Shown: positions 11,948-37,661 of the stretch, piece by piece
Layout: the number at the start of each line of letters is the position of its first letter
Numbering within the stretch: the stretch's first letter is position 1
DNA from: an uncultured Lachnospiraceae bacterium
GTDB taxonomy: Bacteria > Bacillota > Clostridia > Christensenellales > UBA1242
Length of the DNA stretch: 64,000 nt
Reading direction: 5' to 3'
Assembly (NCBI GenBank): GCA_964383665.1
Contig: CAYLHO010000002.1
Span: 138,306 to 202,305 of the forward strand
Position numbers and translations under genes: made by a program
Notes under the pieces: model-generated
What the model was told of the DNA's origin: nothing
Database searches by the model: none
What the model saw: only the letters and a program-made list of their open reading frames with translations

Positions 11948-14900
11948 ATGAAGAAAATTATGATTTTTTCAATAATCCTAATGCCACTTATTGTTTTAGG
12001 AATTATGTTTCTTAGCGGGTCGATTGTTAAGATGTCAACATATCTTTATGTTGAATATATCGAATTTGTTGATGACGAAATTGTCCTTAACAAAACTTCA
12101 GGCGAAAATGTTTCCCATGCTCTTAAAGTTAACGTTTTCCCAGTTCTTGCAAACAACAAAGAAGTTGAATTTTGGAGTGCAAATGAGAATATAGTTTCGG
12201 TTGATGAAAACGGGAATTTAACAAGCAGAGATTTTGGCTCGACATATGTTTATGCAAAAAGCAAAGAAAACGGAGCGAAACAAGCAACTTGTAAGGTTGT
12301 TGTTACAAGCGAAAAAGTTCACAAAATTTGGGCGGAAAATTCAGTTTCAACAATGTATGTTGGCTCAACCCATCGTTTTAACGTTAAATATGCTCCTTTG
12401 GAAGCAAAGGAAGTTTCTTTTAACATAACTTCATCAAATCCAAGCGCGCTTTATGTTTCCCAGGACGGAGAACTTGTTGCAAGGGCAAAGGGAGCTTCAA
12501 CAATAACAATTTCTCTTAAAAGTGATCCAAACATAACCTGTTCGTTTGATGTTGATGTTAAAGTTAAGGCAGAGGGAATTTGGATTGAAGATTCGTCGTC
12601 GGTTACTTCGGCAAAAACAAGTTTCAGTTTCCCAGAAATTAAGTTTTCGCCTTCAACGGCGGAAGAAAAAATTTCCTATTTTTCAAGCGACTCCTCAATT
12701 GCAACTGTTAACAGCGAAGGGCAAATTCAATTTTTGAAAAGGGGAACTGTTGTTATAACTGCGAAAGCGGAAAACGTTAACGATGAGGTTATAAAATCAT
12801 ACACTTCAACTTTTGGATATTTCAAAAATGTTTCGTTCTCAACTCTTAACGAAAGGGAACTAAATTTTGAGGATTGGCAGAATTCAGATTTAAACTTGAT
12901 TTGGACGGGTTTCCCAGAAGACGGAAATTTGGAAAACATTTCGTTAGTAAGTTCGAACGAAAGCGTTGTTAAAGTTGAAAACGGAAAACTTAAAGTTGTT
13001 GGCGGCGGGGAGGCAACAATAACAATTGTTGCAAAAACCTCGGAAACGGAAACAACAACCGCTTCAATAACTCTTAATGTTAACAGAAAAATTGATTCAA
13101 TTTCTTTTGACCGTCCAAATTTCAGTTTTGTTTCGTCAAGGGCAATTGACCTTGCAACTGCGTTCCCAGCCGACGCAACAGAAAGAATTGAATATGAAAT
13201 TTCTAACACCGAAATTGCAACAGTTGAGAACGGGAAATTGGTTTTTTCGTCGGCTGTTTTAAACAATAAATGCGGAAAAGTTAGCATAACAGCAAAAACA
13301 AAAAGTGGACTTGCAAAAACAATAACTGTTGTCTATTTGGATTCCTCGGTTCAAAGAATTGACTTGGGAAATCAAGACCAATTAAATTTAACGCTTCCAA
13401 AAACCGGTGAACCTTCTCTTTCTTTTGCTGTTGTTTCAACTCGAGATGATTTGAACGATTTAAGCTTAAAAATTGAAAGTGGAAGCGATGTTTTAACTCA
13501 AAATGGTTATATTTTCACACTTAAAAACAACGGTAGCGCTGAAATTGGTGTCTATTTTAACGGCGAAACAAACCCAAGCAAAAGAATTGGTGTAAGCGTT
13601 AAGAAAGATGTTGAGGAAATTCAAAATATAAAAGTTTTTGCAACATGGGAAGGGCTCGATTCCAAACAATATTCTTCAAGCGAAAGAATTTATTCATCAA
13701 GCAAGGTTTTTGAAATTTCATATAATCTTTTCCCTTCCGGAACAACAAAAACAGAGGCGGATTTAGAAATTGTTAGCGGCGATGCTGCTCAAATTGTTGA
13801 CGGAAAAATTTGCTTTGTTAAAGCAGGAAAGGTTAGGGTTAGAATTTTTGCCGACCAAGCAAGCGAGGAGTTTGAAATTGAAAGCACGTTCATGCTTCCA
13901 AATGAAAATACGGTTGTAACAAAAAATGTTGAAATTTTTAAAGGTTCAAGCATTTCAATTTGGAGTTTGATTGAGGTTTTGCCAGAAAATGCCGACAGAA
14001 ATAACATAACATTCCAAACATCTTCAACGTCAATTTCAATTGATGAAAACGGGAACATTTTTGGCGTTTGTGGCGGGGAAGCAAAAATTGAAGTTTCAAT
14101 TCCAACTCCAAATCAAACAATTTCAAAGGAAATTAATGTTTTTGTTAAGGAAAATGCAGAAAAAGTTGTGGTTTTGGGCAATGAAATTGAATTTATAACC
14201 AATCAAACTTATAATTTTAAAAACAAATTTAAGGTTTATCCAGAAACTGCAAACCTTAAAACCCAAATAACATTTGGGGTTGAAAATGAAAATGTTGCCT
14301 ACATAAACTCCGAAGGAAACCTTGTTTTTAAAGAAGCGGGACGCTGCGTTGTTTATGCAAAACTTGAAAATGATTTCGTTGCTCGAATTTCTGTTGCATA
14401 TGTTGGAAACTCTCTTGTTTTAAGAGAAACAACAGCGAATGTTCTTGAGGGAACGAAATTTGTTGTTATTCCTTCAAGTGAGGTTCTTTCAAACGCGAAA
14501 TATAGCGATGATTTTATTTCGTCCTCGGAAAATATTTCTGTTTCAAACGGTCTTTTCATAACTGTTTTGGGAAGCGGAGAAGTTACTTTTGCCGGAGAAA
14601 CTTATTCGCTTAATTGCGTTAAAAAGATTACAAATGTTTCAATTTCGGCTGAAAATGCGTTGGACATCGACTTGCGAGGCGGGAAAAACATAACGGGTCT
14701 TTCAAGTTTGAAACTTGTTGGAAATGTTTTTGGCGCGCAAAGCGAATTTATTGAAACAACTTTTGCTTCCAGCAATTTGACCGTTGCAACGATAAGCCAA
14801 ACAGGTGTTTTAAGTTTCAACTCTGCCGGCGAGGTTGAGATAACTTTCGAGGCAAAATTTGTTGATTCTGTTTTGGGAGCAAACAAAATTTTGCATTCAA

Positions 14901-17900
14901 CAAAAATTAAAATTCAATCAACTTTTGGGGAGATTAATGAAATTGTTCCTTCTCAAACGGGGAAATTTGAATTCACAATTGACGACGAAAACCCGATAAA
15001 CAACATTATAAACATTTGCTCATATGTTAATTCCTTCCCAACGCAAGTTTCAATGACAAGCGAAAATGTTAAACTTGTTCTTTCAAACAACTTGCTTGCA
15101 AACGTTAATGGTCTTGAAATTCAATTTGTTAAAGGGGGAACTCTTGGCGTTGAAATTCAAATTAAACAAGGAGATAAATTCGTTCTTGCTTCAAAAATTG
15201 AATTTGAAATTAAGAAAAATGCCGAAGCAATTTATGTTAACGAAAAAGAAATTGTTAACATGAAAACATATTCATGGAACAAGTCAACTTTGTTCCTTAA
15301 TCCTGTTGCATTCCCAGAGGATTCAAACATCAACAACAAAATAACATGGGAAGTTGTTGAAAACAATGGGGTTGCGGAAGTTGATGCTTCAAAAAACAAA
15401 ATTGTTTTCAAAAAGACAAATGAAACAATTTCAATCAAGTTTACCCTTGGGGAAAACGAAAATATAAAAGAATTTGTTGTTTATCTTAAAGCAACAACAA
15501 TAACGTTTGAGGTTGATGTTGAAAGCGAAACATTTGTTGTCCCTTCAAAAGAACCTTTCACTTTTGTTTCCTCCGAAGGCGAAATTTTAAATTTAATTGT
15601 TAATTTTGGAAGCGAGTTCGCAAGTTTAAGAGAACTTTCGGAAGGTGTTTATGTTATTGATGAATCCTGCGTTGGAAACGTTTTAATAAGTGTTGATGGC
15701 AACGAGAGAACAGTTAAACTTGTTTCAACTTCCAACATAAACAAAATTGAAAACGTTGGAATTTCCGATGTTAAAATGAACGGCGAAACCGAAGTTGTTT
15801 CGGCAATTGAAAATGGTTTAAGCCTTGTAACTGCGTCGAAAGAGGTTGGAATTGAATATATCGTTCCAGTTGGCTATAACAAACTTGGGAACTTAATCAG
15901 TTGTCAAATTGCAACCTCAAATTCCGAAATCGCAACAATTGATGGAACAAAAGTTGTTTTCAAAAAAGCTGGAATTGCTAAAATAACATTAACAATTGCT
16001 TTCGACGATGCCTATGGCGAAAAGAGCATAGCTTTCAGTTTTGAAATTAGATCGACGTTTGGGAACATTGAGGAATTTAACGTTCCGCAAGATTCCTATT
16101 CGTTCCTCTATGACGAACTTGAGCAAAGCGAATTGACTTTCGACATTCTTTCATCGCTCACTCGCGTTTCGCCAAGTTATGGCGAAGTTTCGTTGCCAGA
16201 GGTTTCAATAAATAATAACTCTGTTATTAAATTCATAAACAATAAATTTGAAATTGTTGGGTCGGGAACGGCAAAAATTGAAATTAAATGGGGTAATGCA
16301 ACAAAAATAATCAATGTTGGAATCAGCAAGCAAATTGATGGACTTAAATTTGTTGATAACGGGCAGCCATTAACTCAAATTGTTATTAAAACAAAAACTT
16401 ATAACCTTAACTATGAAATTCTTGCAACAAACAGCGCGTTTGCTCCAACTTTGCGCGATGTTGAAATAACGGTTGTTGGCAATGCAACAATAAACGGAAA
16501 GGTTTTAACATTTAATGAGGTAAACGAAAAATGCGTTGTAACCGTTAAGGCAAAGGACGGAAATGCAACCGCGAACCTTGTTGTTGTTTGCGTAAGCGAA
16601 GATGTTAATGTTATTTCTGCAACAAGTTCTCTTAACAGAACTGTTGTTAAAGCGGGCGAAACAAACATTTTCAATTTCGATTTTGGTGAAACGTTTGTTG
16701 AGCTTTTAAATCCATCAAACGATTCAATCGTTTTCAATTCAACCCTTGGAACTTTTAAGGTAACAAAGGGGCTTGAAGGACAACTTCAATTAAGCAATGG
16801 ACAAATTATAACAATTATTGCAACTCAAGAAGTTGGGGGAATTAATTTCAAAACAGGAGCATGGGAAAGCGGAAAAATAACAGCTCTTGGAAGTTCTTCC
16901 GACGGAAAGGGGATTGACCTTAACGAAATTTATGGAGCAAGCATAAGCCCTGTTTCGGCAAGGACCGAAGCTGGAGCATATGTTGTTGAAATTCTTGTTG
17001 ACGATCCGTCGATTGCGTATGTTGAAAATGGTTTCTTATATTTCATTAAGCAAGGAGAAGTTACTTTAACATTTAAAGCGGGCAACGTTGAAGAAAAACG
17101 AAAGATTGAAAGCACACTGGGGTTCGCAAAGAGCGTTGAATTTGAAAATGCTGACGGACTGCAATTTGAATTTACAACAAGGGAATATGTTTTGCCTGAA
17201 AATATGTTCAGTGTTTTTCCTTCCGATGCATATATTATTGGCGCAACGTTCAAGTCGCTTGACGAATCTGTTTTCAAGGTTGAAAATGGAAAACTCATTT
17301 TTGTTGACGGCGGGACTGCAAACCTTGAACTTTCTGTTGAGATTTCGCGAACTGAAACAATAAGCATCACTAAAGAAGTTTATGTTGTTAATCGTGCAAC
17401 AGGAATTGACTTTTTCGATGGGGAAATTAAAGTTGGAAGAATTGTTAAAAATGCAAAACCAAATTCAACAATGGTTTTAAGTTATGTTATTAATTCGGTT
17501 GGCGTGCTTTCGCCATATAACGTTGTTTTCGAGTCGTCGAATGAAAGCGTTGCAACAATTGCAAATGGAATTGTAACCTTTGTTGGAAACGGAACAACAA
17601 CCATAACCGTTAAAGTTCAAAGCAAATTAAACGACGAAACCCAGTTTGATGCAGTTGCAAGCTTGAAAATTGTTAACAACGAAAATTATGAGATAAAAAG
17701 CATAACCCAAGCTGACAACGAAATCTATTTGGAAAGCGAAAGCGCGAACTTGGGAGTTATCTATCCAAAATTTAATATGTCAGATTTAGATTTTGAGTTT
17801 GTTCAACAAAGCGGATTGGACGTTGTTTCAATTGGCGAAAACGGGGAAATAAACAAAATTTCAGGCGGCGAGGCAACTGTTTTAATAAGAGCCGAAGGGT

Positions 17901-20326
17901 TCGAAAAACTTGTAACAATTTATGTTCATAAGAGAACTGGAATTATTCTTGAAAAAGAAAACGTTGTAACCTCAAAAACGAATTGGAAAATTGGCGTTGA
18001 ATTCAGCCCTTCCGATTCTCTTTCAAGAAAAACAATCAACTATGTTTCAAGCGATGAAAACGTTGCAACAGTTGAAAACGGAAACATTGTTTTCCTTAAA
18101 GAGGGAAGTGTTGTTATAACAATTAATGTTGTTTATAATGGCGAAATTGAAACTTCAAAACAATTCAAAATTCGAAGCACTTTTGGCAAGGTTGAAAGTT
18201 TCAACATTGACGTTTCAAGTTGGACGCTGAAAAACGGCGAGAGCAAGGTTATTTCAATAAGCAACGTATATCCAAGCGATTTCTCGGGCGAACTTTCGAT
18301 TTCTTCGAACAACGAAACGGCATTTAAACTTGAGAAATTAAGCGAGATAAGCTTTAAAGTTGAAGGCTTGAAGCGCGGAACTGGAACAATTGTTGTTAAG
18401 TTCAGTGGAAGCGATTCCTTTGCTCAAAATGTTTCAATTGAGGTTAAACAAATTTCAACATCTGTTGAGTTTCAACAAAACGGGAAAACCGTTTCAAGCA
18501 TTAAATCTTTTGCCAATGTTGTTGATTTAACAGCAATTGTTAAACCTTTCGATTCTAATGAAACCGCGGTTGAATGGGAAGTTGAAAGCGGGAATGCAAC
18601 CGTCAGCGAAAACGGGCAAGTTACATTTGTTGTTGGGGCATATGGCGAGGCAGTTATCGTTGCAAAAGCAAAGGACGGCGGAAGCCAAGGGAAGATAACA
18701 ATAACCTATGTTCAAGAAATTGATGGGTTCAACATTTCACATTCAGGAAAAACAGTTGCTTCGGGCGGAACAGTTTTCTTGGGGTGGAACGTTAACGACC
18801 TCATTTTGGGAATTGAAATTTTGCCAGCAACGCTTAAAGATTTTAACATGTTCGAATATTTCACAATAACTTCTTCAAACGGAAGCACTGCTCAAATTGA
18901 CGAGAATGGAAAAATTCAAATTGCAACTTTAAGCCACGAAACAAATCCATCATTTACTGATGTTATAACAATTAAATATAAGGATTTATATACTAAAACA
19001 ATTAATATTATAAGAGATGGAATTCAAAGAGTTGATTTTGGGAATCACGATAACGAACTCGATTCAACATATGGCTTGCAACAAATGAGATTGTTTGGGA
19101 ACAGGTCGTATTACGATGGAATCCAAAATTACTACCGAATGACTGTTAATGTTTATCCAAACAACAACCTTTCGTCAAACATCATTTGGGAAACTTCCAA
19201 CTCAAACGTTTCTGTTGTTAATGCGAACGGTTATGCTGATATCTATTTCAACAGCATTTCGGGAAGCACTGTTCAAGAAATTTATGATGATGATTTCAGC
19301 AAGGGCGAAATAACAGTTTATGCAAAAAATCAAGCCGGGGAACTCCTTTATTCCTACACTTTCCATATTGTTAATGCAGTTAACGTTTTCGATCAAGCAG
19401 GTTATGTTAACGGCGGAAGTGAAATTGTTTTGCAAAAGAGTTTGGGACATGACGACCAAGCGGCGCTCATTGAAAAAGGAAGTTATGCACGTCTTGACGC
19501 ATATGCTGCAAAAACAACCATTTTTGGAAATGGATTCTTAATTAACTTTGCCCACAGAAACAAAGACACAAGCGAAGCTTCCTATACAAACTATGAAAAC
19601 ATTCAAGTTAACATTAAAAATGCAATAAATTTAACAATCCAAGGCTCAAACTACGACAGCACGCGTGAGTCGTATAACATTGAACTTACGGGAACAGAAA
19701 AACTTTCCTATTGCGAAATTTACTATATGTATCGTTCGGTTGAAAAAACTTCGGGGAACATTTATGTTAAACGCTGTTTATTCAGAACGTTCAAGTCATC
19801 TGGAATAATTGGGTCGGCAAACGACACGAAAAACTTATATCTTGAGGACATAATCATGTTCGACGTTGGAACTCGTGCAATTGAACTCCAAAAAAATGGA
19901 ACAGCATATCTTAAAGGCTTCATCGATGTTTATAACTTCCAAAACAAAGATGCAATTAAAGAATACACATCAATTGGAGCAAGCACCATTATAAACAGGT
20001 TTAACGCAGGCAACATGGTTGTTGAAGTTAACGGCGAAAAATGGGTTAACATGGTTGGAATCTCTTCCAAAGGAACAGATTTAAAAATTTACTATTATAA
20101 TTACGATACGGGAGAATATGAATATAAAGAAAACGGGGACCACACTTCCGCATATGGCCTTACAAGAATAACTTATGGACTTGGAAGTTTGGGAATAACC
20201 GCTTGGTCCTATACGAATGGATCGCAACCGCATTTAACCTATGCCAACGAATTTAAAGATGACGGCTCACTTAATGTTGAATATATGATTTCAACAGTTC
20301 CAAAAATCAAACGTCTTACAACTTAA
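11948..20326 (+). CDS. giant (2792 aa) membrane-anchored surface protein with about 20-25 Big_2-type Ig-like repeats and a non-Ig C-terminal domain (possible beta-helix)
   Basis: GGGAGGAAAG SD 14 nt after the permease stop. N-terminal hydrophobic anchor MKKIMIFSIILMPLIVLGIMFLSG. The signature S[SN]xxxVATVxxxGxVxxxxxGxxxIT recurs throughout, for example SSDSSIATVNSEGQIQFLKRGTVVITAKA and SSDENVATVENGNIVFLKEGSVVITINV. The last ~440 aa lack this pattern. No LPXTG or choline/SLH motif was seen. Confidence 0.85.
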   Translation: MKKIMIFSIILMPLIVLGIMFLSGSIVKMSTYLYVEYIEFVDDEIVLNKTSGENVSHALKVNVFPVLANNKEVEFWSANENIVSVDENGNLTSRDFGSTYVYAKSKENGAKQATCKVVVTSEKVHKIWAENSVSTMYVGSTHRFNVKYAPLEAKEVSFNITSSNPSALYVSQDGELVARAKGASTITISLKSDPNITCSFDVDVKVKAEGIWIEDSSSVTSAKTSFSFPEIKFSPSTAEEKISYFSSDSSIATVNSEGQIQFLKRGTVVITAKAENVNDEVIKSYTSTFGYFKNVSFSTLNERELNFEDWQNSDLNLIWTGFPEDGNLENISLVSSNESVVKVENGKLKVVGGGEATITIVAKTSETETTTASITLNVNRKIDSISFDRPNFSFVSSRAIDLATAFPADATERIEYEISNTEIATVENGKLVFSSAVLNNKCGKVSITAKTKSGLAKTITVVYLDSSVQRIDLGNQDQLNLTLPKTGEPSLSFAVVSTRDDLNDLSLKIESGSDVLTQNGYIFTLKNNGSAEIGVYFNGETNPSKRIGVSVKKDVEEIQNIKVFATWEGLDSKQYSSSERIYSSSKVFEISYNLFPSGTTKTEADLEIVSGDAAQIVDGKICFVKAGKVRVRIFADQASEEFEIESTFMLPNENTVVTKNVEIFKGSSISIWSLIEVLPENADRNNITFQTSSTSISIDENGNIFGVCGGEAKIEVSIPTPNQTISKEINVFVKENAEKVVVLGNEIEFITNQTYNFKNKFKVYPETANLKTQITFGVENENVAYINSEGNLVFKEAGRCVVYAKLENDFVARISVAYVGNSLVLRETTANVLEGTKFVVIPSSEVLSNAKYSDDFISSSENISVSNGLFITVLGSGEVTFAGETYSLNCVKKITNVSISAENALDIDLRGGKNITGLSSLKLVGNVFGAQSEFIETTFASSNLTVATISQTGVLSFNSAGEVEITFEAKFVDSVLGANKILHSTKIKIQSTFGEINEIVPSQTGKFEFTIDDENPINNIINICSYVNSFPTQVSMTSENVKLVLSNNLLANVNGLEIQFVKGGTLGVEIQIKQGDKFVLASKIEFEIKKNAEAIYVNEKEIVNMKTYSWNKSTLFLNPVAFPEDSNINNKITWEVVENNGVAEVDASKNKIVFKKTNETISIKFTLGENENIKEFVVYLKATTITFEVDVESETFVVPSKEPFTFVSSEGEILNLIVNFGSEFASLRELSEGVYVIDESCVGNVLISVDGNERTVKLVSTSNINKIENVGISDVKMNGETEVVSAIENGLSLVTASKEVGIEYIVPVGYNKLGNLISCQIATSNSEIATIDGTKVVFKKAGIAKITLTIAFDDAYGEKSIAFSFEIRSTFGNIEEFNVPQDSYSFLYDELEQSELTFDILSSLTRVSPSYGEVSLPEVSINNNSVIKFINNKFEIVGSGTAKIEIKWGNATKIINVGISKQIDGLKFVDNGQPLTQIVIKTKTYNLNYEILATNSAFAPTLRDVEITVVGNATINGKVLTFNEVNEKCVVTVKAKDGNATANLVVVCVSEDVNVISATSSLNRTVVKAGETNIFNFDFGETFVELLNPSNDSIVFNSTLGTFKVTKGLEGQLQLSNGQIITIIATQEVGGINFKTGAWESGKITALGSSSDGKGIDLNEIYGASISPVSARTEAGAYVVEILVDDPSIAYVENGFLYFIKQGEVTLTFKAGNVEEKRKIESTLGFAKSVEFENADGLQFEFTTREYVLPENMFSVFPSDAYIIGATFKSLDESVFKVENGKLIFVDGGTANLELSVEISRTETISITKEVYVVNRATGIDFFDGEIKVGRIVKNAKPNSTMVLSYVINSVGVLSPYNVVFESSNESVATIANGIVTFVGNGTTTITVKVQSKLNDETQFDAVASLKIVNNENYEIKSITQADNEIYLESESANLGVIYPKFNMSDLDFEFVQQSGLDVVSIGENGEINKISGGEATVLIRAEGFEKLVTIYVHKRTGIILEKENVVTSKTNWKIGVEFSPSDSLSRKTINYVSSDENVATVENGNIVFLKEGSVVITINVVYNGEIETSKQFKIRSTFGKVESFNIDVSSWTLKNGESKVISISNVYPSDFSGELSISSNNETAFKLEKLSEISFKVEGLKRGTGTIVVKFSGSDSFAQNVSIEVKQISTSVEFQQNGKTVSSIKSFANVVDLTAIVKPFDSNETAVEWEVESGNATVSENGQVTFVVGAYGEAVIVAKAKDGGSQGKITITYVQEIDGFNISHSGKTVASGGTVFLGWNVNDLILGIEILPATLKDFNMFEYFTITSSNGSTAQIDENGKIQIATLSHETNPSFTDVITIKYKDLYTKTINIIRDGIQRVDFGNHDNELDSTYGLQQMRLFGNRSYYDGIQNYYRMTVNVYPNNNLSSNIIWETSNSNVSVVNANGYADIYFNSISGSTVQEIYDDDFSKGEITVYAKNQAGELLYSYTFHIVNAVNVFDQAGYVNGGSEIVLQKSLGHDDQAALIEKGSYARLDAYAAKTTIFGNGFLINFAHRNKDTSEASYTNYENIQVNIKNAINLTIQGSNYDSTRESYNIELTGTEKLSYCEIYYMYRSVEKTSGNIYVKRCLFRTFKSSGIIGSANDTKNLYLEDIIMFDVGTRAIELQKNGTAYLKGFIDVYNFQNKDAIKEYTSIGASTIINRFNAGNMVVEVNGEKWVNMVGISSKGTDLKIYYYNYDTGEYEYKENGDHTSAYGLTRITYGLGSLGITAWSYTNGSQPHLTYANEFKDDGSLNVEYMISTVPKIKRLTT

Positions 20327-26430: not shown

Positions 26431-27168
26431 ATGAAAAGACTTTCGAAAGCATTTAATGTTATAACCGATGTCATTTTCTTTTTGGTAATGGGGTTGCTTA
26501 TTGTTTACCTTGTTATTTCATTCTCTGCTAAATTTTCTCATGGTGTTCCTTCCTATTTTGGCTATTCCTATGTTCGCGTTATGTCGCGCTCGATGGAGGC
26601 AAGCGGAATTTACAAGGGAGACATTGTTGTTCTTAAAAGAGTTAACGTTTCCGAAATTAAAGTTGGAGATGTTATTGCATACTATCTTTATGACGGCTCG
26701 CCGGTCCAATTCCCTGCAGATGGGGACGAACCTGAAGAAGTTTTGGACTATCCAACAAACCAAGAGTCTCATAAAACAACAATAATTTTCCACCAAGTTG
26801 TTTCCATTCGCGTTGATAAATACGGTCATCGCTGGTTTAGGACGTATGGAACAAGCAACATAAACACCGAAACAGGTAAACCAATTCTTGACCCATGGGT
26901 TCGCGGGGATTATGTTATTGGAATTTATAATCAAACATGGGTTGCAAGTGTTATTAAGTTCATAACCTCAACAGCCGGAATCATAACAATTGTTGTTGTT
27001 CCGTCGGCGCTTGTTGCGCTAATGCTTCTTTTCAGCATGATCGACACGGTTGACAAAATGATGAAAATGAAAAAACTTGCAGCAGCGCTTCCAACAACCT
27101 CGGGGCTTATTGAGGGTGAGGACAATCCGGACGCAGAAAAGCCGCCGGAAGAGCAAAAAGACGAATAG
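26431..27168 (+). CDS. sipW: signal peptidase I, SipW/archaeal-ER type (S26B), with a C-terminal TM segment and acidic tail
   Basis: 245 aa, GAGGGGG SD. N-terminal TM, catalytic-Ser box VMSRSMEAS (compare SGSMEP), GDIVVLKR, His box IIFHQVVSI. It also has an extra C-terminal TM (IITIVVVPSALVALMLLF) and an E/D/P-rich end. Confidence 0.75.
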   Translation: MKRLSKAFNVITDVIFFLVMGLLIVYLVISFSAKFSHGVPSYFGYSYVRVMSRSMEASGIYKGDIVVLKRVNVSEIKVGDVIAYYLYDGSPVQFPADGDEPEEVLDYPTNQESHKTTIIFHQVVSIRVDKYGHRWFRTYGTSNINTETGKPILDPWVRGDYVIGIYNQTWVASVIKFITSTAGIITIVVVPSALVALMLLFSMIDTVDKMMKMKKLAAALPTTSGLIEGEDNPDAEKPPEEQKDE

Positions 27169-27197
27169 AAAAAACGCTTTGATAAAAGCGTTTTTTT
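27169..27197. terminator. bidirectional intrinsic terminator between convergent genes
   Basis: A-run, stem CGCTTT / AAAGCG (27175-27190), loop GATA, T7 run. Confidence 0.75.
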
Positions 27198-28239
27198 AAA
27201 TCACATTGTTTTGAACCCTTTTAATCATTTGATTAATTTCCCTGTTTGCATTCATAACAATGATTTCTGTGTTTGGATTATCGGATTTCCAAACCCTAAA
27301 AATCTCATCGGCAAAGGCTTGACCAATTTTTGGAACCAAACGGAAATCAAGGCAAATTTCTTTAAACTTATTCATTCCTGTCATTAGGCGTCTTGCTTGC
27401 GAACGAGAAATGTAGATTGATTCACTTTCATTATATTCAAGGCGTTTAACTGAAATAATGGTTTTGCAAAAACCTTCATCTGGATCTGCAAATTGATTGA
27501 AAACTTCGCTTAAAGAAATTTTATTTGCAATGCTAATTTTGAATGCAACAGCTGTCCCTTTAAATTGCTTATTTTTTTGAACAATTGCTTTATCGTCGTC
27601 GGGTTTGGAAAGATTTGCGGTTGAGAATGTTAAGTCGTTTGCAAGAATTAAGAAATAGTCGGCGCATTTTGACGAAAAGAAAATTCCTTCTCCCGTGTGT
27701 GATTTTGGGTTCGTTGTAACTTTCCCTTTCATAAGTTCGAAAACCGAATGTTCAATATTTTCAAGATTAAATTTTCTTTTAATTTTCTCGAAAATTCCAA
27801 CCCCATTATCAATTACATAGGTTGTAACATCAACCGACGTTATGCTCATAATAACTTTAATTTCATTTCCTTCGGAATGTTCAATTGCGTTGTTAAAAAT
27901 TTCTGAATAGATATAATCAAAAATTTCTCGTGCATTTTGGGGGAGGAATGAAACTAAAGGTCGAACCTCGCTTAACGATTCAAATTCACTTATTTTTCCA
28001 ATTGAATATTTAAATTCCTTATCAACAGGAACAAGCGTAAGTTTTTGGGTTCTTCCAACTCGTTTTTTTCGAATAACATTATCATTTGAGAGCTTATTAA
28101 TAAGCTTATAAATTGCTTGAACTGAAACTCCAAATTCATTTGAAAGGTTATGGATTAATTCCGCATCTAAAAGATGTTGGGAAATATTAACTAAAATTTT
28201 TTCAATTAATGTGTTTTTATTTTCTTTACTTATCGACAT
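27196..28239 (-). CDS. wHTH + GHKL (HATPase_c, SpoIIAB-like) + STAS-like (DUF4325) fusion protein
   Basis: 347 aa, GGAG SD. N-terminal HTH LSNEFGVSVQAIYKLINKL. Bergerat-fold boxes: N box EIFNNAIEHS, G1 VIDNGVGI, G2 HTGEGIFF. The C-terminal SRSQARRL...DFRLVPKIGQAFADEIFRVW matches the DUF4325 STAS-like signature. Confidence 0.75.
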   Translation of the reverse strand: MSISKENKNTLIEKILVNISQHLLDAELIHNLSNEFGVSVQAIYKLINKLSNDNVIRKKRVGRTQKLTLVPVDKEFKYSIGKISEFESLSEVRPLVSFLPQNAREIFDYIYSEIFNNAIEHSEGNEIKVIMSITSVDVTTYVIDNGVGIFEKIKRKFNLENIEHSVFELMKGKVTTNPKSHTGEGIFFSSKCADYFLILANDLTFSTANLSKPDDDKAIVQKNKQFKGTAVAFKISIANKISLSEVFNQFADPDEGFCKTIISVKRLEYNESESIYISRSQARRLMTGMNKFKEICLDFRLVPKIGQAFADEIFRVWKSDNPNTEIIVMNANREINQMIKRVQNNVI

Positions 28240-28288
28240 GTTTTTTCTCCATTGTAATTATATCCCTTGTGTCAAGATATATAACTAA

Positions 28289-28408
28289 ATTGTAAACTTA
28301 AATTTAACAATTGTCAACTTAAATTTAACAATTGTAAACTTAACAAAGGTTAATTGTAAACTTAATGATGATTGATTGTAAACTTAAGGTCTTTAATTGT
28401 AAACTTAA
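28289..28408. repeat. six direct copies of the 13-bp motif ATTGTAAACTTAA, phased every 21-22 bp (putative operator or iteron array)
   Basis: Copies start at 28289, 28310 (variant ATTGTcAACTTAA), 28331, 28353, 28375 and 28396. The spacings are 21, 21, 22, 22 and 21 bp. Copies 1-3 belong to a longer 21-bp unit (…ATTTAACA spacer). The array lies between divergent genes. Confidence 0.9.
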
Positions 28409-28440
28409 TTTTGCACTTTTGCAATTTTAAACGATTTGTT

Positions 28441-28469
28441 TTGAAAAAAGGTTGTATATATTATATAAT
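28441..28469 (+). promoter_or_regulatory. promoter of the HD hydrolase gene
   Basis: TTGAAA (28441-28446), 17-nt spacer, TATAAT (28464-28469). It starts 33 bp after the last repeat copy. Confidence 0.55.
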
Positions 28470-28488
28470 ATATTTGTAGGAAGGAAAA

Positions 28489-29070
28489 ATGGACTATCAA
28501 GAAGAGTTTAAGAAAATTTTTAAGGAAAACATAAAGCGCGAAGGCTCTGACAAACTTTTGGAGTGGCTTGAAAAAAGTGATTTTTTCTCTGCGCCTGCGT
28601 CAACAAAATTCCACAGCGCCCATGAAGGCGGTCTTTGCGAGCACAGCGTTAAGGTTTACGAAAGATTTTTGAAACTTGTTAGAAACGAGTTTGGCGAAAA
28701 TTTTGAGGAAAAAATTTCAAAAGAAAGCATCGCATTAATTGCGCTTTGTCATGACGTTTGCAAAGTTAACACCTATAAAACAGACTTTCGAAATGTTAAG
28801 GAAAACGGGGCATGGGTTCAAAAGCCATATTATGCCGTTGACGACAAGTTGCCATATGGTCATGGCGAAAAATCGGTTTACATAATCAACGGATTCACTC
28901 GCCTTTCTCGCGAGGAAGCGCTTGCAATAAATTGGCACATGGGCGCGTTTGACCTTCGAGTTCAAGGCGGAAGTTATGCGCTTAAAGATGCATATTTGGC
29001 ATATCCAACCGCGCTTCTTCTCCACATTGCCGATGTTATGGCAACATATTTAGACGAGGAACAGGGTTAA
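28489..29070 (+). CDS. HD-domain phosphohydrolase (YhaM-like HD domain without the OB fold)
   Basis: 193 aa, AGGAAGGA SD. Motifs APASTKFHSAHEGGLCEHS ... ALCHDVCK ... YGHGEKS ... LLLHIADVMAT, consistent with an H..HD..D metal-binding set. Confidence 0.75.
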   Translation: MDYQEEFKKIFKENIKREGSDKLLEWLEKSDFFSAPASTKFHSAHEGGLCEHSVKVYERFLKLVRNEFGENFEEKISKESIALIALCHDVCKVNTYKTDFRNVKENGAWVQKPYYAVDDKLPYGHGEKSVYIINGFTRLSREEALAINWHMGAFDLRVQGGSYALKDAYLAYPTALLLHIADVMATYLDEEQG

Positions 29071-29076
29071 GAAAAA

Positions 29077-29101
29077 ACTTGGGTTATCCCAGGTTTTTTT
29101 C
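29077..29101 (+). terminator. intrinsic terminator after the HD gene
   Basis: Stem ACTTGGG / CCCAGGT (one G-U pair), loop TTAT, T8 run. Confidence 0.7.
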
Positions 29102-29130
29102 TTTTCAAATGGGAATTTATGTGATACAAT
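29102..29130 (+). promoter_or_regulatory. promoter directly abutting the divIB/ftsQ-like ATG (possible leaderless transcript)
   Basis: TTTTCA (29102-29107), 17-nt spacer, TGa-TACAAT (29122-29130). The ATG at 29137 is exactly 6 nt after the -10 box and no SD is present. Confidence 0.5.
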
Positions 29131-29136
29131 TTACAT

Positions 29137-30042
29137 ATGAAATTTTTAAAGAAGCATAAAAAAGCAACAATAATTTGTTCCTGTGTTTTGGTTTTGCTTA
29201 TTGTTCTTGTTATTTTAATGTTCACTCTTTTTTCGCTTAAAGAGGTTAAAGTTGAATATAAAACAGGAAGGATTAATTTAACCGATGAAATAACAACCGA
29301 AATTGAAAACGAAGCGCTTAAAACGGGCGGCTCGGTTTTGTTTTTGGGAAAGGAAAAGCTTATTTCGCGCCTTGAAAAGCAATTCCCATATTTAAAAATT
29401 GTTAACATTGAAACTCAAATTCCAAACAAACTTGTTATCCATGCTGTTGAGCGCGAGGAATTTTTTGCAATCAATTCCGGCGAAAAATCGTATTTTCTTG
29501 ATGAGGAATTCAAAATTCTTAAAGTTGAAAATTCAACGTACGTAAAGCAAGAAAATGGGCCTGTTTTGCTTTCATTTGGAAGCGTTTTTCTTGATGAAAG
29601 TTCAAAAGCATACGCCGCACCAATCGATCTTAACCTTTCGGGCGCAGAAGCAGGGCAGGTTTTAAGCATTGCAAGTTCAAGCGATGAAAACTCATATTTT
29701 TCAAAGAAACTTGAAACAATTTCGCGTTCAATTTTAACTGCTTTTGAAGAAAACAAATTTCAAATTTCTGATGTTCGAAGCAAATATTTAAGTTTCGATG
29801 TTTTCTTTAAACCAATTGAGGTTTCAACAGTTGTTTCATGGCAACCTTGCTTAAAAATTGTTGACACAGCAAATTTTGAAACGCAAATTATTCTTGCCGA
29901 TTCGGATTTGACCGAAAAAATTTCGGTTATGAACGAGGCATTTTCTGCTGCTTCAAAAAATCCAGCGCTTTTAACAAACAAAGTTCTCTATGTTTTCGAA
30001 AACAACAACAAGGAAATTGCTTATTCGTTTTTAGACAAATGA
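29137..30042 (+). CDS. FtsQ/DivIB-like cell-division protein
   Basis: 301 aa. Short basic N-terminus, a single TM (IICSCVLVLLIVLVILMFTLF), then a POTRA-like start LKEVKVEYKTGRINLTDE. Its position is immediately upstream of ftsA-ftsZ. Confidence 0.6.
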   Translation: MKFLKKHKKATIICSCVLVLLIVLVILMFTLFSLKEVKVEYKTGRINLTDEITTEIENEALKTGGSVLFLGKEKLISRLEKQFPYLKIVNIETQIPNKLVIHAVEREEFFAINSGEKSYFLDEEFKILKVENSTYVKQENGPVLLSFGSVFLDESSKAYAAPIDLNLSGAEAGQVLSIASSSDENSYFSKKLETISRSILTAFEENKFQISDVRSKYLSFDVFFKPIEVSTVVSWQPCLKIVDTANFETQIILADSDLTEKISVMNEAFSAASKNPALLTNKVLYVFENNNKEIAYSFLDK

Positions 30043-34900: not shown

Positions 34901-34979
34901 ATTTTATTTTGTTATTAATTTATAATTGTATATAATAATATTTAGTTAAAGTTACTAAAAATTGGCAATTGGAGGCTCT

Positions 34980-37661
34980 ATGAGAATTATTCCAAGAAAA
35001 ATTAAGGTTAAAACAGAGTTTATTAAAGGTGTTACGTTAACCGACATCATCTTTGCATTTATTGGTGTTGGTGTTGCGGTTGCGCTTTTCACTGCTAACT
35101 TTCCATATCACGTTTGGGTTGGGGTTGGCTGGCTTATTGTTGCCTTCAGCCTTTTCCTTCCGGTTGCCGATGGAATTAGATTTTATTACACGTTAGGATA
35201 TTTGTTTAGGTTTTTTGCGCAAAAGAAAAAATATTCGAAAGACGCAAAAAAAGAAAGCTCAAACATCTCAACAATAATTCCTTTTGTTGGGTTCGAGCAA
35301 GACAGATTTATTAACTATAAAGATTACTATGCGCAAGTTATTGAAATCACACCTGTTGAGTTCGGACTTTTGAATGAGTTTAAGCAAAACATGCTTATTG
35401 AAACATTTGCAAATGCGCTTCGTCGTTTAACCGAAACGCAAACCGCAAACATAATTAAACTTAGCAAAGCAATGATTCTCGACAACTATGTTTATGTTGA
35501 GGACAGAAAGTATGATTCCCTTCTCGACCTTCAAATTGAAGGGGAAATGACTGCAAAAGAAGTTGAAGCGAGAGCAGGAATTTTTGAGGACAGGGTTTCA
35601 CGTGTTGAATCCATGAACCGCCAAGAAAAAGTTTATAAAGATTACTATTATTTCGTTGTTTATGGAAAAGATAAAGAAATTTTGGAAACAACAATCAACG
35701 GAATTATGACAACGCTTTCAAATTCCGTAACTCCAATGACAACGAAGAAGTTGGCAGGACGCGAACTTGTTGTTTTTGTTAAAGCAACCTTTGGAAAAGA
35801 ATTTGATGAAAGAGAACTTGATTCAATTGCAATGGATAAGTATTACGATTGGGCAGTTCCAAAAGAACTTAAATTTAAAGCCGCTGGTTACACTGTTGAT
35901 GGAAGAGGCTATCGACAATTTGTTGTTAACGACTATCCTCTTAACGTTCCAAATGCTTGGGGATTTAATTTCTTTTCGCAGGACAGAACAAAAGTTATTG
36001 TTAAAATTAAGCCTGTTCAAAAGTTGAAAGCTGAACGAAACATCGATAAGGCAATTATGGAAATGGAAAGTAAGGCAGCTTATTCAGCAAAGAGCAGTAG
36101 GGTTATTGAAAACGAAACCCACAGAGAAACGCTGAAACAACTTCTTGTTAGCCTTAAAAACAACAATGAACAACTTTTTGATGTTAACACCTACGTAATT
36201 TGTGAGGAGGCGGCAAGAAAAGAAGTTAAAGCAATCTTGAAACAAGAAGGCTTTAAAATTTCTGAATTGTTTGGTCGACAAGTTGATGGGTTCATAAGCT
36301 CAAACATTTCAATGAGAGATAACATCAAAGATACAATGCGTGGAATGCCAACAACAACTCTTGCAGCAATTTTCCCATTCATTTCGGGGGCGCTTCAAGA
36401 TAAAGATGGGTTCTATATTGGATATAATGAATACCCAATTTTCGTTGACTTCTTTGTTAGAAACAGAGACAGAGTTAACAGCAACATGATGATTGTTGGT
36501 AAATCTGGTTCGGGAAAATCTTTCGCAACAAAAACTTTGCTTTCAAACTTTGCTGCGGATAACACAAAAATATTTATTCTTGACCCAGAAGATGAATATA
36601 CAGTTCTTGCAGGGAATTTGCATGGAAAAGTTATTGATGTTGGGTCTTCATCGATGGGAATTATTAATCCTTTTCACATAATGACAACTCTTAAAGACGA
36701 CATTAAAGATGTTTCGGAAGTTTACGACGAAGAAGATGAAAAGGAAGAAGATAACGGAAAGCTCAAACTTAAAGAATCAACCGACACATTTTCAACCCAC
36801 CTTCAATTCGTTGAGCAGTTCTTTAAGGTTATTCTTAATGGAATGGACAGCGATTCGTTTGAGGCTCTTAACTCGCTTGTTGTTGAAATGTATAACGAAA
36901 AGGGAATCGATTCAAACACCGATCTTGAAAAACTCAAGCCAGAGGATTATCCAATCTTTGATGACCTTTACAGAATTATTCTTGATCGCGTTGAAAAAGA
37001 AACCGACGAATATCACAAACGCAATTTGTTAACAATTCAAACATACATCAAGAAATTTGCAACTGGGGGAAGAAACAGTAATCTTTGGAATGGTCCAACC
37101 TCAATAAGCACAAAAGAAAATTTCGTTTCCTTTAACTTCCGTTCTCTTCTTGCAAACAGAAACGAGGTTATTGCGAACGCACAAATGCTTTTGATATTTA
37201 AATATTTGGATAATGAAATTATTAAAAATCGTGACTTCAACATTCGTTTTAAAACCAACAGAAAAATTATTGTTGCCGTTGACGAAGCCCACATTTTCAT
37301 TAATCCAGAATATCCAATTGCTTTGGATTTCATGGCGCAAATGGCAAAACGTATTCGTAAGTATTCAGGAATGCAAATTGTTATTACGCAAAACATTAAG
37401 GACTTCGTTGGAACTCCGGAAATTCAACGTCAATCAACGGCTGTTATTAACGCCAGCCAATACTCAATGATTTTCTCACTTTCGCCAAACGACTTGAACG
37501 ACCTTGTTGAGTTGTATCGAAAATCGGGGGAAATCAACAACGAGGAACAAAACAGCATCGTTACGGCTGGGGTTGGTCAGTGTTTCTTCATAACTGGGGC
37601 AATGAACCGAACCATGATGCAAATTGAAGCACCAGATTCAATAAGAAAGATATTTGAATAA
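34980..37661 (+). CDS. VirB4-family (AAA_10/TraE-like) ATPase with an N-terminal PrgI/VirB3-like membrane segment
   Basis: I use ATG 34980 (MRIIPRK...), 5 nt after GGAGG, rather than TTG 34962. The N-terminus IPRKIKVKTEFIKGVTLTDIIF plus 2 TMs resembles PrgI/VirB3. Walker A IVGKSGSGKSFATK, FILDPEDEY, Walker B IIVAVDEAHIF, ITQNIKDF. Confidence 0.75.
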   Translation: MRIIPRKIKVKTEFIKGVTLTDIIFAFIGVGVAVALFTANFPYHVWVGVGWLIVAFSLFLPVADGIRFYYTLGYLFRFFAQKKKYSKDAKKESSNISTIIPFVGFEQDRFINYKDYYAQVIEITPVEFGLLNEFKQNMLIETFANALRRLTETQTANIIKLSKAMILDNYVYVEDRKYDSLLDLQIEGEMTAKEVEARAGIFEDRVSRVESMNRQEKVYKDYYYFVVYGKDKEILETTINGIMTTLSNSVTPMTTKKLAGRELVVFVKATFGKEFDERELDSIAMDKYYDWAVPKELKFKAAGYTVDGRGYRQFVVNDYPLNVPNAWGFNFFSQDRTKVIVKIKPVQKLKAERNIDKAIMEMESKAAYSAKSSRVIENETHRETLKQLLVSLKNNNEQLFDVNTYVICEEAARKEVKAILKQEGFKISELFGRQVDGFISSNISMRDNIKDTMRGMPTTTLAAIFPFISGALQDKDGFYIGYNEYPIFVDFFVRNRDRVNSNMMIVGKSGSGKSFATKTLLSNFAADNTKIFILDPEDEYTVLAGNLHGKVIDVGSSSMGIINPFHIMTTLKDDIKDVSEVYDEEDEKEEDNGKLKLKESTDTFSTHLQFVEQFFKVILNGMDSDSFEALNSLVVEMYNEKGIDSNTDLEKLKPEDYPIFDDLYRIILDRVEKETDEYHKRNLLTIQTYIKKFATGGRNSNLWNGPTSISTKENFVSFNFRSLLANRNEVIANAQMLLIFKYLDNEIIKNRDFNIRFKTNRKIIVAVDEAHIFINPEYPIALDFMAQMAKRIRKYSGMQIVITQNIKDFVGTPEIQRQSTAVINASQYSMIFSLSPNDLNDLVELYRKSGEINNEEQNSIVTAGVGQCFFITGAMNRTMMQIEAPDSIRKIFE

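Follow-up and report, generated by a model that had tools for sequence, protein, structure and literature searches.

We studied a repeat array in a window of 64,000 nucleotides (nt) of contig CAYLHO010000002.1, from an uncultured Lachnospiraceae bacterium. It has six full direct repeats (28289-28408), located between a minus-strand gene of 347 amino acids (aa) and a divergent plus-strand gene for an HD-domain hydrolase (HD). The 347-aa protein joins a winged helix-turn-helix (wHTH), a GHKL domain and a C-terminal STAS-like DUF4325 domain. We propose, with a probability of about 0.65, that the array is the promoter-operator of this wHTH-GHKL-DUF4325 gene. Most likely, the repeats would serve both as the gene's promoter and as the binding sites of its own protein. 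Compared with its relatives, the window array appears as an enlarged version of the three-repeat control element of one large family, present in many phyla.

The array and the predicted promoter of the 347-aa gene

An exact and near-exact search of the 64 kb found ATTGTAAACTTAA with 0 mismatches at 28289, 28331, 28353, 28375 and 28396. The sixth copy, at 28310, is ATTGTCAACTTAA, with a single A->C change (1 mismatch). The start-to-start spacing of the full copies is 21/21/22/22/21 bp. No other site in the window has one mismatch or less. Seven matches with 2 mismatches lie outside the array, within the chance range (13 matches in total vs a shuffle mean of 7.0). Tandem Repeats Finder delimits the array at 28288-28408 (period 21, 5.7 copies). 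Within this region, it detects a second, tighter unit of 21 bp, AATTGTAAACTTAAATTTAAC, at 28288-28343 (2.7 copies, 94% matches). These results agree with the original prediction on the 13-bp core, its five perfect copies and one changed copy, the spacings, the longer unit in three of the copies and the uniqueness of the motif in the window. The exclusion of clustered regularly interspaced short palindromic repeats (CRISPR) was also correct. The core has 13 bp and the spacers 8-9 bp, vs CRISPR repeats of 23-50 bp with unique spacers of similar length. On the other hand, the array does not fill the whole space from the ATG to the HD -35 box, as had been claimed. At one end, 49 nt separate the ATG (28239) from the first full copy, and they contain the ribosome-binding site and a seventh, partial copy in phase. 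At the other end, 32 nt separate the last full copy from the -35 box (28441). Counting the seventh copy, the spacing on the gene's strand is 21/22/22/21/21/21, and the array ends 30 nt before the ATG.

The repeats resemble promoter elements when they are read on the strand of the 347-aa gene. Each copy is TTAAGTT(G/T)ACAAT, where a -35-like hexamer overlaps a -10-like hexamer. In the standard copy, TTAAGTTTACAAT, these are TTTACA and TACAAT. With a period of 21 or 22 bp, a spacer of 17 or 18 nt separates the -35 of each copy from the -10 of the following one. Therefore, the promoter scan gives a run of five to six consecutive sigma-70-type matches on the minus strand, and all adjacent pairs of copies score 9-11/12 at 17-18 nt. 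The best match (11/12) combines TTGACA of the variant copy 5, a spacer of 17 nt and TACAAT of copy 6 (copies numbered along the gene's strand; Table 1). Copies 5 and 6 would form the core promoter, with a predicted transcription start near 28282. Beyond the array on this strand come the partial seventh copy (cTTGACAc), a GGAG and the ATG. Judged from the sequence, the sites overlap the regulator's own predicted promoter elements, with the partial copy at about +8. The original prediction did not mention that the minus-strand repeats are themselves -35/-10 hexamers at promoter spacing. It had correctly described the A->C change in one copy, but this copy is not defective, since the change makes the consensus -35 TTGACA, the same in all relatives.

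The most likely mechanism would be autorepression by promoter occlusion. One winged helix would bind each site, and the protomers would line up on one DNA face because the sites are two helical turns apart. The protein could then occupy the -35, the -10 and the +8 region of its own promoter, so it would repress its own transcription. The SpoIIAB-like ATP-binding domain and the STAS-like domain may set the binding strength or the oligomerization. Extra copies might add cooperativity or buffering. When unoccupied, they could act as further weak tandem promoters.

The comparison with related strains, suggested earlier, found the array conserved. Orthologues of 71%, 70% and 56% identity have the same synteny: an ATP-binding cassette (ABC) gene, a 170-aa gene, a 245-aa gene, the family gene and the divergent HD-FtsQ-x-FtsA. 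Their arrays lie on the same strand with the same core, and have 4, 5 and 5 full copies, respectively, plus a partial copy each. Most copies in these three relatives are TTGACAAT, and the copy before the last full one always is. All relatives, and among them the 45%-identity outgroup, have TTTACAAT as the counterpart of copy 6, the last full copy in the window. The counterpart of copy 5 carries TTGACA in L004, L008, L294 and L292, and that of the partial seventh copy is cTTGACAA(A/T) in L004, L008 and L294.

The 45%-identity relative has a different genomic context, with no HD gene. It presents exactly three copies: TTAAGTTGACAAA, then, after a 17-nt spacer, TACAAT, and then TTAAGTTTACAAGGAG, followed by the ATG. 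Its promoter reads TTGACA-17-TACAAT. Therefore, copies 5, 6 and 7 of the window would correspond to the ancestral triplet. Copies 1-4 appear to be a tandem amplification specific to the lineage, whose number still varies among relatives (4-6 full copies). The 21-bp unit common to copies 4, 5 and 6 points to recent duplication. Close relatives with 3, 4, 5 and 6 copies, together with the orphan array described below, are a ready series for the tuning of feedback by site number.

Recurrence of the triplet in the protein family

The family is large. Among the scored candidates, there are more than 6,400 clusters at 90% identity. At 50% identity, about 1,240 clusters reach E<=1e-30. Members are found in many bacterial phyla, and candidate cultured carriers are Desulfomonile tiedjei (P0082) and Stenomitos frigidus ULC18 (L050). 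We selected a distant set of 80 loci (33-41% identity). They belong to Acidobacteria, Chloroflexi, several proteobacterial classes, Patescibacteria, Planctomycetes, Nitrospirae, Spirochaetes and others.

The upstream test looked for at least three TTGACAAT-like sites chained at 20-23 bp in the orientation of the gene, with other stretches of the same loci as controls. Such sites are directly upstream in 54/82 family loci vs 1/1352 control stretches. A motif-free search for any phased 9-mer upstream gave 44/79 family loci vs 0/646 controls. In short form, the family site is (A)AGGTTGACAAT, with copies 21-22 bp apart; the usual spacing of the triplet is 22/22 or 21/22. With start codons of the distant loci assigned mechanically, the distance from the end of the final copy to the first in-frame ATG is usually 0-25 nt. 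The logo of 172 sites from 51 arrays is wAAGG-TTGACAAT, where the AAGG flank carries information beyond the promoter hexamers. In the window's clade, the consensus is TTAAG-TT(G/T)ACAAT. Across the family, a -35-like TTGACA or TTTACA overlaps a -10-like GACAAT or TACAAT.

These features make up the triplet signature of the wHTH-GHKL-DUF4325 family, which is defined in this analysis and corresponds to no published family. The window has both parts of it. Its TTGACAAT-type copies point in the same direction, at 21-22 bp, in the orientation of the gene and near its start codon, and the adjacent gene has the full wHTH + GHKL + DUF4325 architecture.

The reverse test started from the array. Metagenome contigs were scanned with TTGACAAT-N13/14-TTKACAAT-N13/14-TTKACAA, and we kept intergenic arrays with non-identical spacers and at least 600 nt of DNA downstream (31 arrays). 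Spacer identity and open reading frame (ORF) context removed many viral and some metagenome hits (one redundant coding match; 21-nt coding tandem repeats). The family gene is behind 28/31 of these intergenic arrays. Metagenome arrays have 3 copies (22 cases), 4 (6), 5 (6) or 6 (2). Therefore, with six full copies, the window array is at the top of the recurrent range.

No neighbor of the family gene is conserved in all-against-all BLAST of three genes on each side in the 80 loci. Likewise, Pfam and PADLOC show no recurrent family among 146 flanking proteins. This leaves the family gene itself as the only constant partner of the array. A defense role was considered from the neighborhoods and rejected: around 73 distant family genes, defense or mobile genes (Wadjet, SoFic, mads, integrases) are sporadic, with no defensible enrichment. 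One locus, L295:1641-5248, has a 38%-identity member with two or three copies of a variant site, TAAGTTTAATATT. On one side of its gene there is an Abi_2 gene with an S24-peptidase/HTH repressor, and on the other side, a phage-type integrase. Therefore, at least some family members ride on mobile or defense-type islands.

The domains of the 347-aa protein are consistent with a DNA-binding regulator. Pfam identifies DUF4325 (E=4.7e-11) and, weakly, HATPase_c. We used an AlphaFold2 model (pLDDT 83, pTM 0.77) for Foldseek comparisons. The central domain matches SpoIIAB (1l0o, 1tid, 1th8, 1til; TMt 0.71-0.76) and also RsbW. The C-terminal domain matches RsbV (6m36_G, 6m37_A), with a root-mean-square deviation of ~1.8-1.9 A over 75-79 columns. 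The N-terminus matches ArsR/MarR proteins, both in the PDB sequence search and in Foldseek on the model. Beyond these and generic histidine-kinase ATP-binding domains, the PDB search found no close solved relative by sequence. In the family alignment, the GHKL N-box and G-boxes are invariant (E113, N116/N117, D144-G146-G148, G183-E184), and G185 nearly so. The DUF4325 part has invariant SRSQA and IGQAFADE motifs. Thus, the protein resembles a partner-switch pair fused behind a DNA-binding domain. The alignment (hhalign) of the STAS-like domain with a SpoIIAA sequence was not usable. The conserved IGQAFADE stretch, which may or may not correspond to the position of the phosphorylatable serine of SpoIIAA, has no serine. 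PADLOC gave a weak wHTH match for the regulator and weak Cas3-HD matches for the HD protein, far below the family cut-offs, and a defense protein was rejected. In the searchable literature, we found no description of the family's operator or function; DUF4325 is mentioned only in passing.

Site variants follow the predicted recognition-helix variants across the family. Members with helix (S/T)RQAVNKH or (S/T)RQAVHKH have the site TTGACAAT, ISKQAASRH goes with TGTTGTCGAT, and ITPQAVxLH with CTTTAAAATA. In the candidate phyla radiation, FSRQRAHxY goes with GGGGTTTACAAA. In Betaproteobacteria, SRQT(I/V)...RL goes with CTTTAC(A/C/G)TT. The helix ITKPTVxKY has no direct array; at least one member (L033) has TTTACAttTTGTAAA. 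More generally, L012, L014, L033, L057 and L082, with helix (I/T)(S/T)KPT(V/A)xKY, show no phased direct triplet upstream. In L033, the inverted repeat TTTACAttTTGTAAA takes its place, and in L057 and L082 only a TTTACATT half is clear. This pairing would be expected if the winged helix reads the repeat, with a contribution from shared ancestry. With the helix-motif covariation and the counts of 54/82 loci and 28/31 arrays, one part of the original prediction is supported, namely that the array is the cognate cis-element of the adjacent wHTH protein. Its other part, the control of both divergent genes, was not supported: the family gene has no conserved neighbor, HD has its own promoter, and relatives have HD without the family gene or the motif.

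Alternative readings and comparison with known systems

Several observations weigh against a promoter-operator read by the family protein. Less than three TTGACAAT-like copies are found in 28/82 family loci, some of them with variant motifs or inverted repeats. The covariation between helix and motif is confounded by phylogeny. The subgroups with TTGTCGAT or CTTTAAAATA keep the triplet and are poor promoters; therefore, the equation of site and promoter is not universal. A thymine at core position 3 is present in 18/51 arrays for copy 2 vs 10/51 for copy 1, a modest bias for copy 2 as the -10. Likewise, a thymine at position 8 is present in 44/51, 39/51 and 28/51 for copies 2, 1 and 3, also a modest bias. 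Outside the window's clade, the position-specific evidence that copy 1 would be the -35 and copy 2 the -10 is then modest. In addition, identical arrays are found on viral contigs without the family gene, and an orphan array is kept in the relative L299. Therefore, the layout does not need a family gene next to it to exist, and perhaps not to function either.

L299 has the same synteny, with ~82% flank identity to L008, and no wHTH-GHKL-DUF4325 gene between the 237-aa gene and HD. Three phased copies remain on the same strand at L299:3284-3338 (TTAAGTTGACAAT, TTAAATTGACAAT, TTAAGTTGACAAT; 21 bp apart). They are flanked by the terminator of the upstream gene on one side and by the HD promoter on the other, and the intergenic DNA around them has lost its alignment with L008. 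This orphan array is either the remnant of a deletion or a site that works in trans. About a dozen distinct IMG/VR viral contigs (L154, L138, L095, L097, L102, L116, L129, L132, L140, L150, L155, L161) have triplets in intergenic DNA that share the core and the spacing, and most of them have flanks of the AAGG type. At L154:1042-1091 (-), the triplet TTGACAAT, TTTACAAT, TTGACAAA, flanked by AAGG, is followed after 8 nt by ten clustered tRNA genes of the same strand. At L138:11285-11335 (-), the triplet lies ~300 nt upstream of tRNA-Ile and tRNA-Val. None of the 81 viral loci has the family gene, and no gene common to the neighborhoods of the viral arrays was found. A triplet ahead of a viral tRNA cluster supports a promoter activity of the layout. 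The viral triplets may be strong promoters, or else targets or decoys of family proteins.

These arrays bear on the reading of the repeats as only a stack of tandem sigma-70 promoters. Amplification would raise the expression of the 347-aa gene, and no dedicated protein would read the repeats. The scores of all adjacent pairs (9-11/12 at 17-18 nt), the retained array in L299 and the same layout directly upstream of phage tRNA clusters, in loci without the family gene, are in its favor. Like phage early and stable-RNA promoters, the array has consecutive consensus-like -35/-10 pairs, and the triplet before the phage tRNA cluster is identical. Unlike them, it has conserved flanks, a copy after the start and covariation with the helix, which point to an element read by a protein. 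Bases outside the hexamers are conserved (TTAAG here, AAGG family-wide). The third copy is conserved past the predicted start, where promoters need none. Some subgroups keep three sites at 22 bp with non-promoter-like cores that track the recognition helix. Moreover, conservation across phyla together with one gene family is not a property of ordinary promoters. We consider this explanation distinctly unlikely.

A bidirectional operator, where the extended array lets the wHTH protein control HD as well as its own gene, also seems unlikely. In this clade, the array grew toward the HD promoter, the distance of 32 nt from the last copy to the HD -35 is fixed in the window and L004, and three copies persist upstream of HD in L299 even though the family gene is gone. 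However, the HD promoter (28441-28469) overlaps no copy, and ~70-80 nt lie between the closest upstream one and the predicted HD start. HD is a core gene that is highly conserved in uncultured Clostridia (thousands of matches at 70-98% identity), and it is expressed from motif-free upstream contexts in relatives. It always heads HD-FtsQ-x-FtsA-FtsZ, with a variable upstream neighbor (glycosyltransferase, zeta toxin, others). In those relatives with other neighbors, neither the family gene nor the motif was found upstream of HD. HD does not adjoin the family gene in the 80 distant loci or in the 45% outgroup. With an HD promoter free of copies and these varied contexts, nothing in the comparative data supports joint control. 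HD appears as a neighbor of the 347-aa gene, not as its family partner. A lineage-specific local effect of the array on HD is possible.

The original prediction had offered iterons or a partition site of a plasmid or phage, functional or relic, as an alternative. Direct repeats at ~22 bp resemble the iterons of Rep proteins, which are also read by winged-helix domains. The array does have the ~17-22-bp direct repeats at ~22-bp spacing that are characteristic of iterons, and similar triplets occur on viral contigs. Nevertheless, the context does not agree with this option, and it was rejected. The chromosomal surroundings are housekeeping (ABC transporters, FtsQ/A/Z, GpmI, GreA, CysS), and cumulative GC skew is monotonic, with no switch. 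There is no DnaA box within 7 kb, and no Rep or Par domain in either flanking protein (Pfam, NCBIfam, PADLOC). A tblastn search with the 347-aa protein gave no match among 72,556 plasmids and 50,697 phages. In dozens of chromosomal contexts unrelated to each other, the array accompanies the family gene. We regard iterons or a partition site as very improbable here.

Compared with known systems, the preferred promoter-operator has the logic of an autoregulated winged-helix repressor and the geometry of iterons, and it is a member of neither class as usually defined. Like ArsR/MarR autoregulatory operators, it involves an N-terminal wHTH of ArsR/MarR type and sites over the regulator's own promoter hexamers and early transcribed region. 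The expected logic is also negative feedback by occlusion. In ArsR/MarR operators, a symmetric dimer usually binds one or two inverted repeats, whereas here three to seven sites, two helical turns apart, point in the same direction. These sites are direct repeats and not dyads; only the core TTGwCAA is quasi-palindromic, and the flanks and the central base give the direction. In the 172-site logo, this 7-bp core is self-reverse-complementary except for its central base, which accounts for the TTGTCAAT variants inside otherwise direct arrays. In principle, the palindromic core could allow a symmetric dimer to read neighboring direct sites. In further contrast, the family site is itself the -35/-10 consensus and keeps the same sequence across phyla. 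The family regulator has GHKL and STAS-like domains in place of the small ligand-binding or dimerization module of ArsR/MarR proteins.

With plasmid iterons, read by winged-helix initiators of the RepA/RepE/TrfA type that auto-repress rep, the array shares head-to-tail ~22-bp repeats, a presumed winged-helix reader and a repeat number that varies among relatives. It differs in having no Rep protein, origin features or replicon context, and in repeats that coincide with promoter hexamers. The relation to SpoIIAB-SpoIIAA and RsbW-RsbV is structural. The central domain of the family protein superposes on SpoIIAB and the C-terminal one on RsbV, with invariant GHKL boxes. Unlike these pairs, the family protein has both modules in one chain behind a DNA-binding domain, with no sigma-factor partner or PP2C phosphatase encoded nearby. 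Neither of the two is conserved near the family gene (80 loci; Pfam on the 146 flanking proteins).

A joint reading of these results is possible but doubtful. The family would be a self-contained, horizontally mobile, single-gene cassette, and its regulator would have evolved to recognize a site that is at once the near-universal bacterial -35 and -10 consensus (TTGACAAT at a 21-22-bp period). The phage and L299 triplets would be trans targets or decoys. The wHTH-GHKL-STAS proteins would then be ATP-gated silencers or sensors of foreign promoters and not ordinary housekeeping regulators. If this were true, the gene would bring with it a promoter that fires in almost any phylum and the repressor that tames it. 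Apart from this reading, the results give a first concrete handle on the family: a defined DNA site, a fixed three-site geometry, a predicted promoter and helix-to-site pairings. They offer a natural case of an operator built from promoter hexamers and nearly unchanged across phyla. This is relevant to how a gene, once transferred, can remain both expressible and under control in a new host.

Features of the locus and the rest of the window

The features of the locus are listed in Table 1. Downstream of HD on the plus strand, the order is FtsQ, a small membrane protein, FtsA, FtsZ and GpmI. Between the last full copy and the HD -35 there is an 8-bp repeat, AATTTTGC (28409-28430, 2.8 copies), partly conserved in L004. 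Rfam, searched over 27000-29500 with a permissive threshold, placed no RNA element on the array.

Table 1. Positions of the array copies, predicted promoters and flanking genes in the window.
Feature	Coordinates	Strand	Evidence and remarks
347-aa gene: wHTH + SpoIIAB/RsbW-like GHKL + C-terminal DUF4325 (STAS-like)	27196..28239	-	ORF, Pfam, AlphaFold2, Foldseek, alignment; presumed reader of the repeats
Shine-Dalgarno GGAG of the 347-aa gene, 7 nt before ATG	28247..28250	-	Sequence; kept in L004 and L294; GGGGG in L008
Seventh, partial copy cTTGACAc (28275->28270), 21 bp in phase past the last full copy	28270..28275	-	Equals copy 3 of the canonical triplet; predicted ~+8 to +13
Copy 6 (first in the original prediction), TTAAGTTTACAAT; predicted -10 TACAAT 28294->28289	28289..28301	-	11/12 promoter with copy 5
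Copy 5, variant, TTAAGTTGACAAT; predicted -35 TTGACA 28317->28312, 17 nt from -10	28310..28322	-	Motif and promoter scans
Copy 4, extra upstream copy; probable lineage-specific expansion	28331..28343	-	21-bp unit in common with copies 5 and 6
Copy 3, extra upstream copy	28353..28365	-	TTTACA-18-TACAAT pairs, 10/12
Copy 2, extra upstream copy	28375..28387	-	Motif and promoter scans
Copy 1, most upstream, 32 nt from the HD -35 box	28396..28408	-	Same 32-nt distance in L004
Separate promoter of the HD gene, TTGAAA-17-TATAAT; no overlap with the repeats	28441..28469	+	Promoter scan; kept in L004 and L299
193-aa HD-domain hydrolase, first gene of the HD-FtsQ-x-FtsA-FtsZ block	28489..29070	+	ORF, Pfam, relatives

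The window has ~35% G+C and monotonic cumulative GC skew. Its housekeeping genes include ABC exporters, GreA, CysS and TsaB, and it has no tRNA genes. Between the phosphoglycerate mutase gene and greA, at 34962-37661 (+), there is an 899-aa P-loop ATPase of the TraG/VirB4/HerA type (TraG P-loop domain, DUF87, AAA_10). No other conjugation genes were recognized near it, and the neighborhood is otherwise housekeeping. At 11948-20326 (+), an ORF of 2,792 aa presents many internal repeats of ~80-90 residues and an N-terminal segment resembling a signal or anchor. Its product is probably a giant surface protein. Finally, the minus-strand ORF 1103-2932 contains two dense short repeats, at 2055-2242 and 2460-2523: a 15-nt unit, TTTTGTTCTTGCTTG (x4.7, 100% identity), and the 6-nt CTTTGT (x10.5). 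They probably represent a low-complexity coding region.

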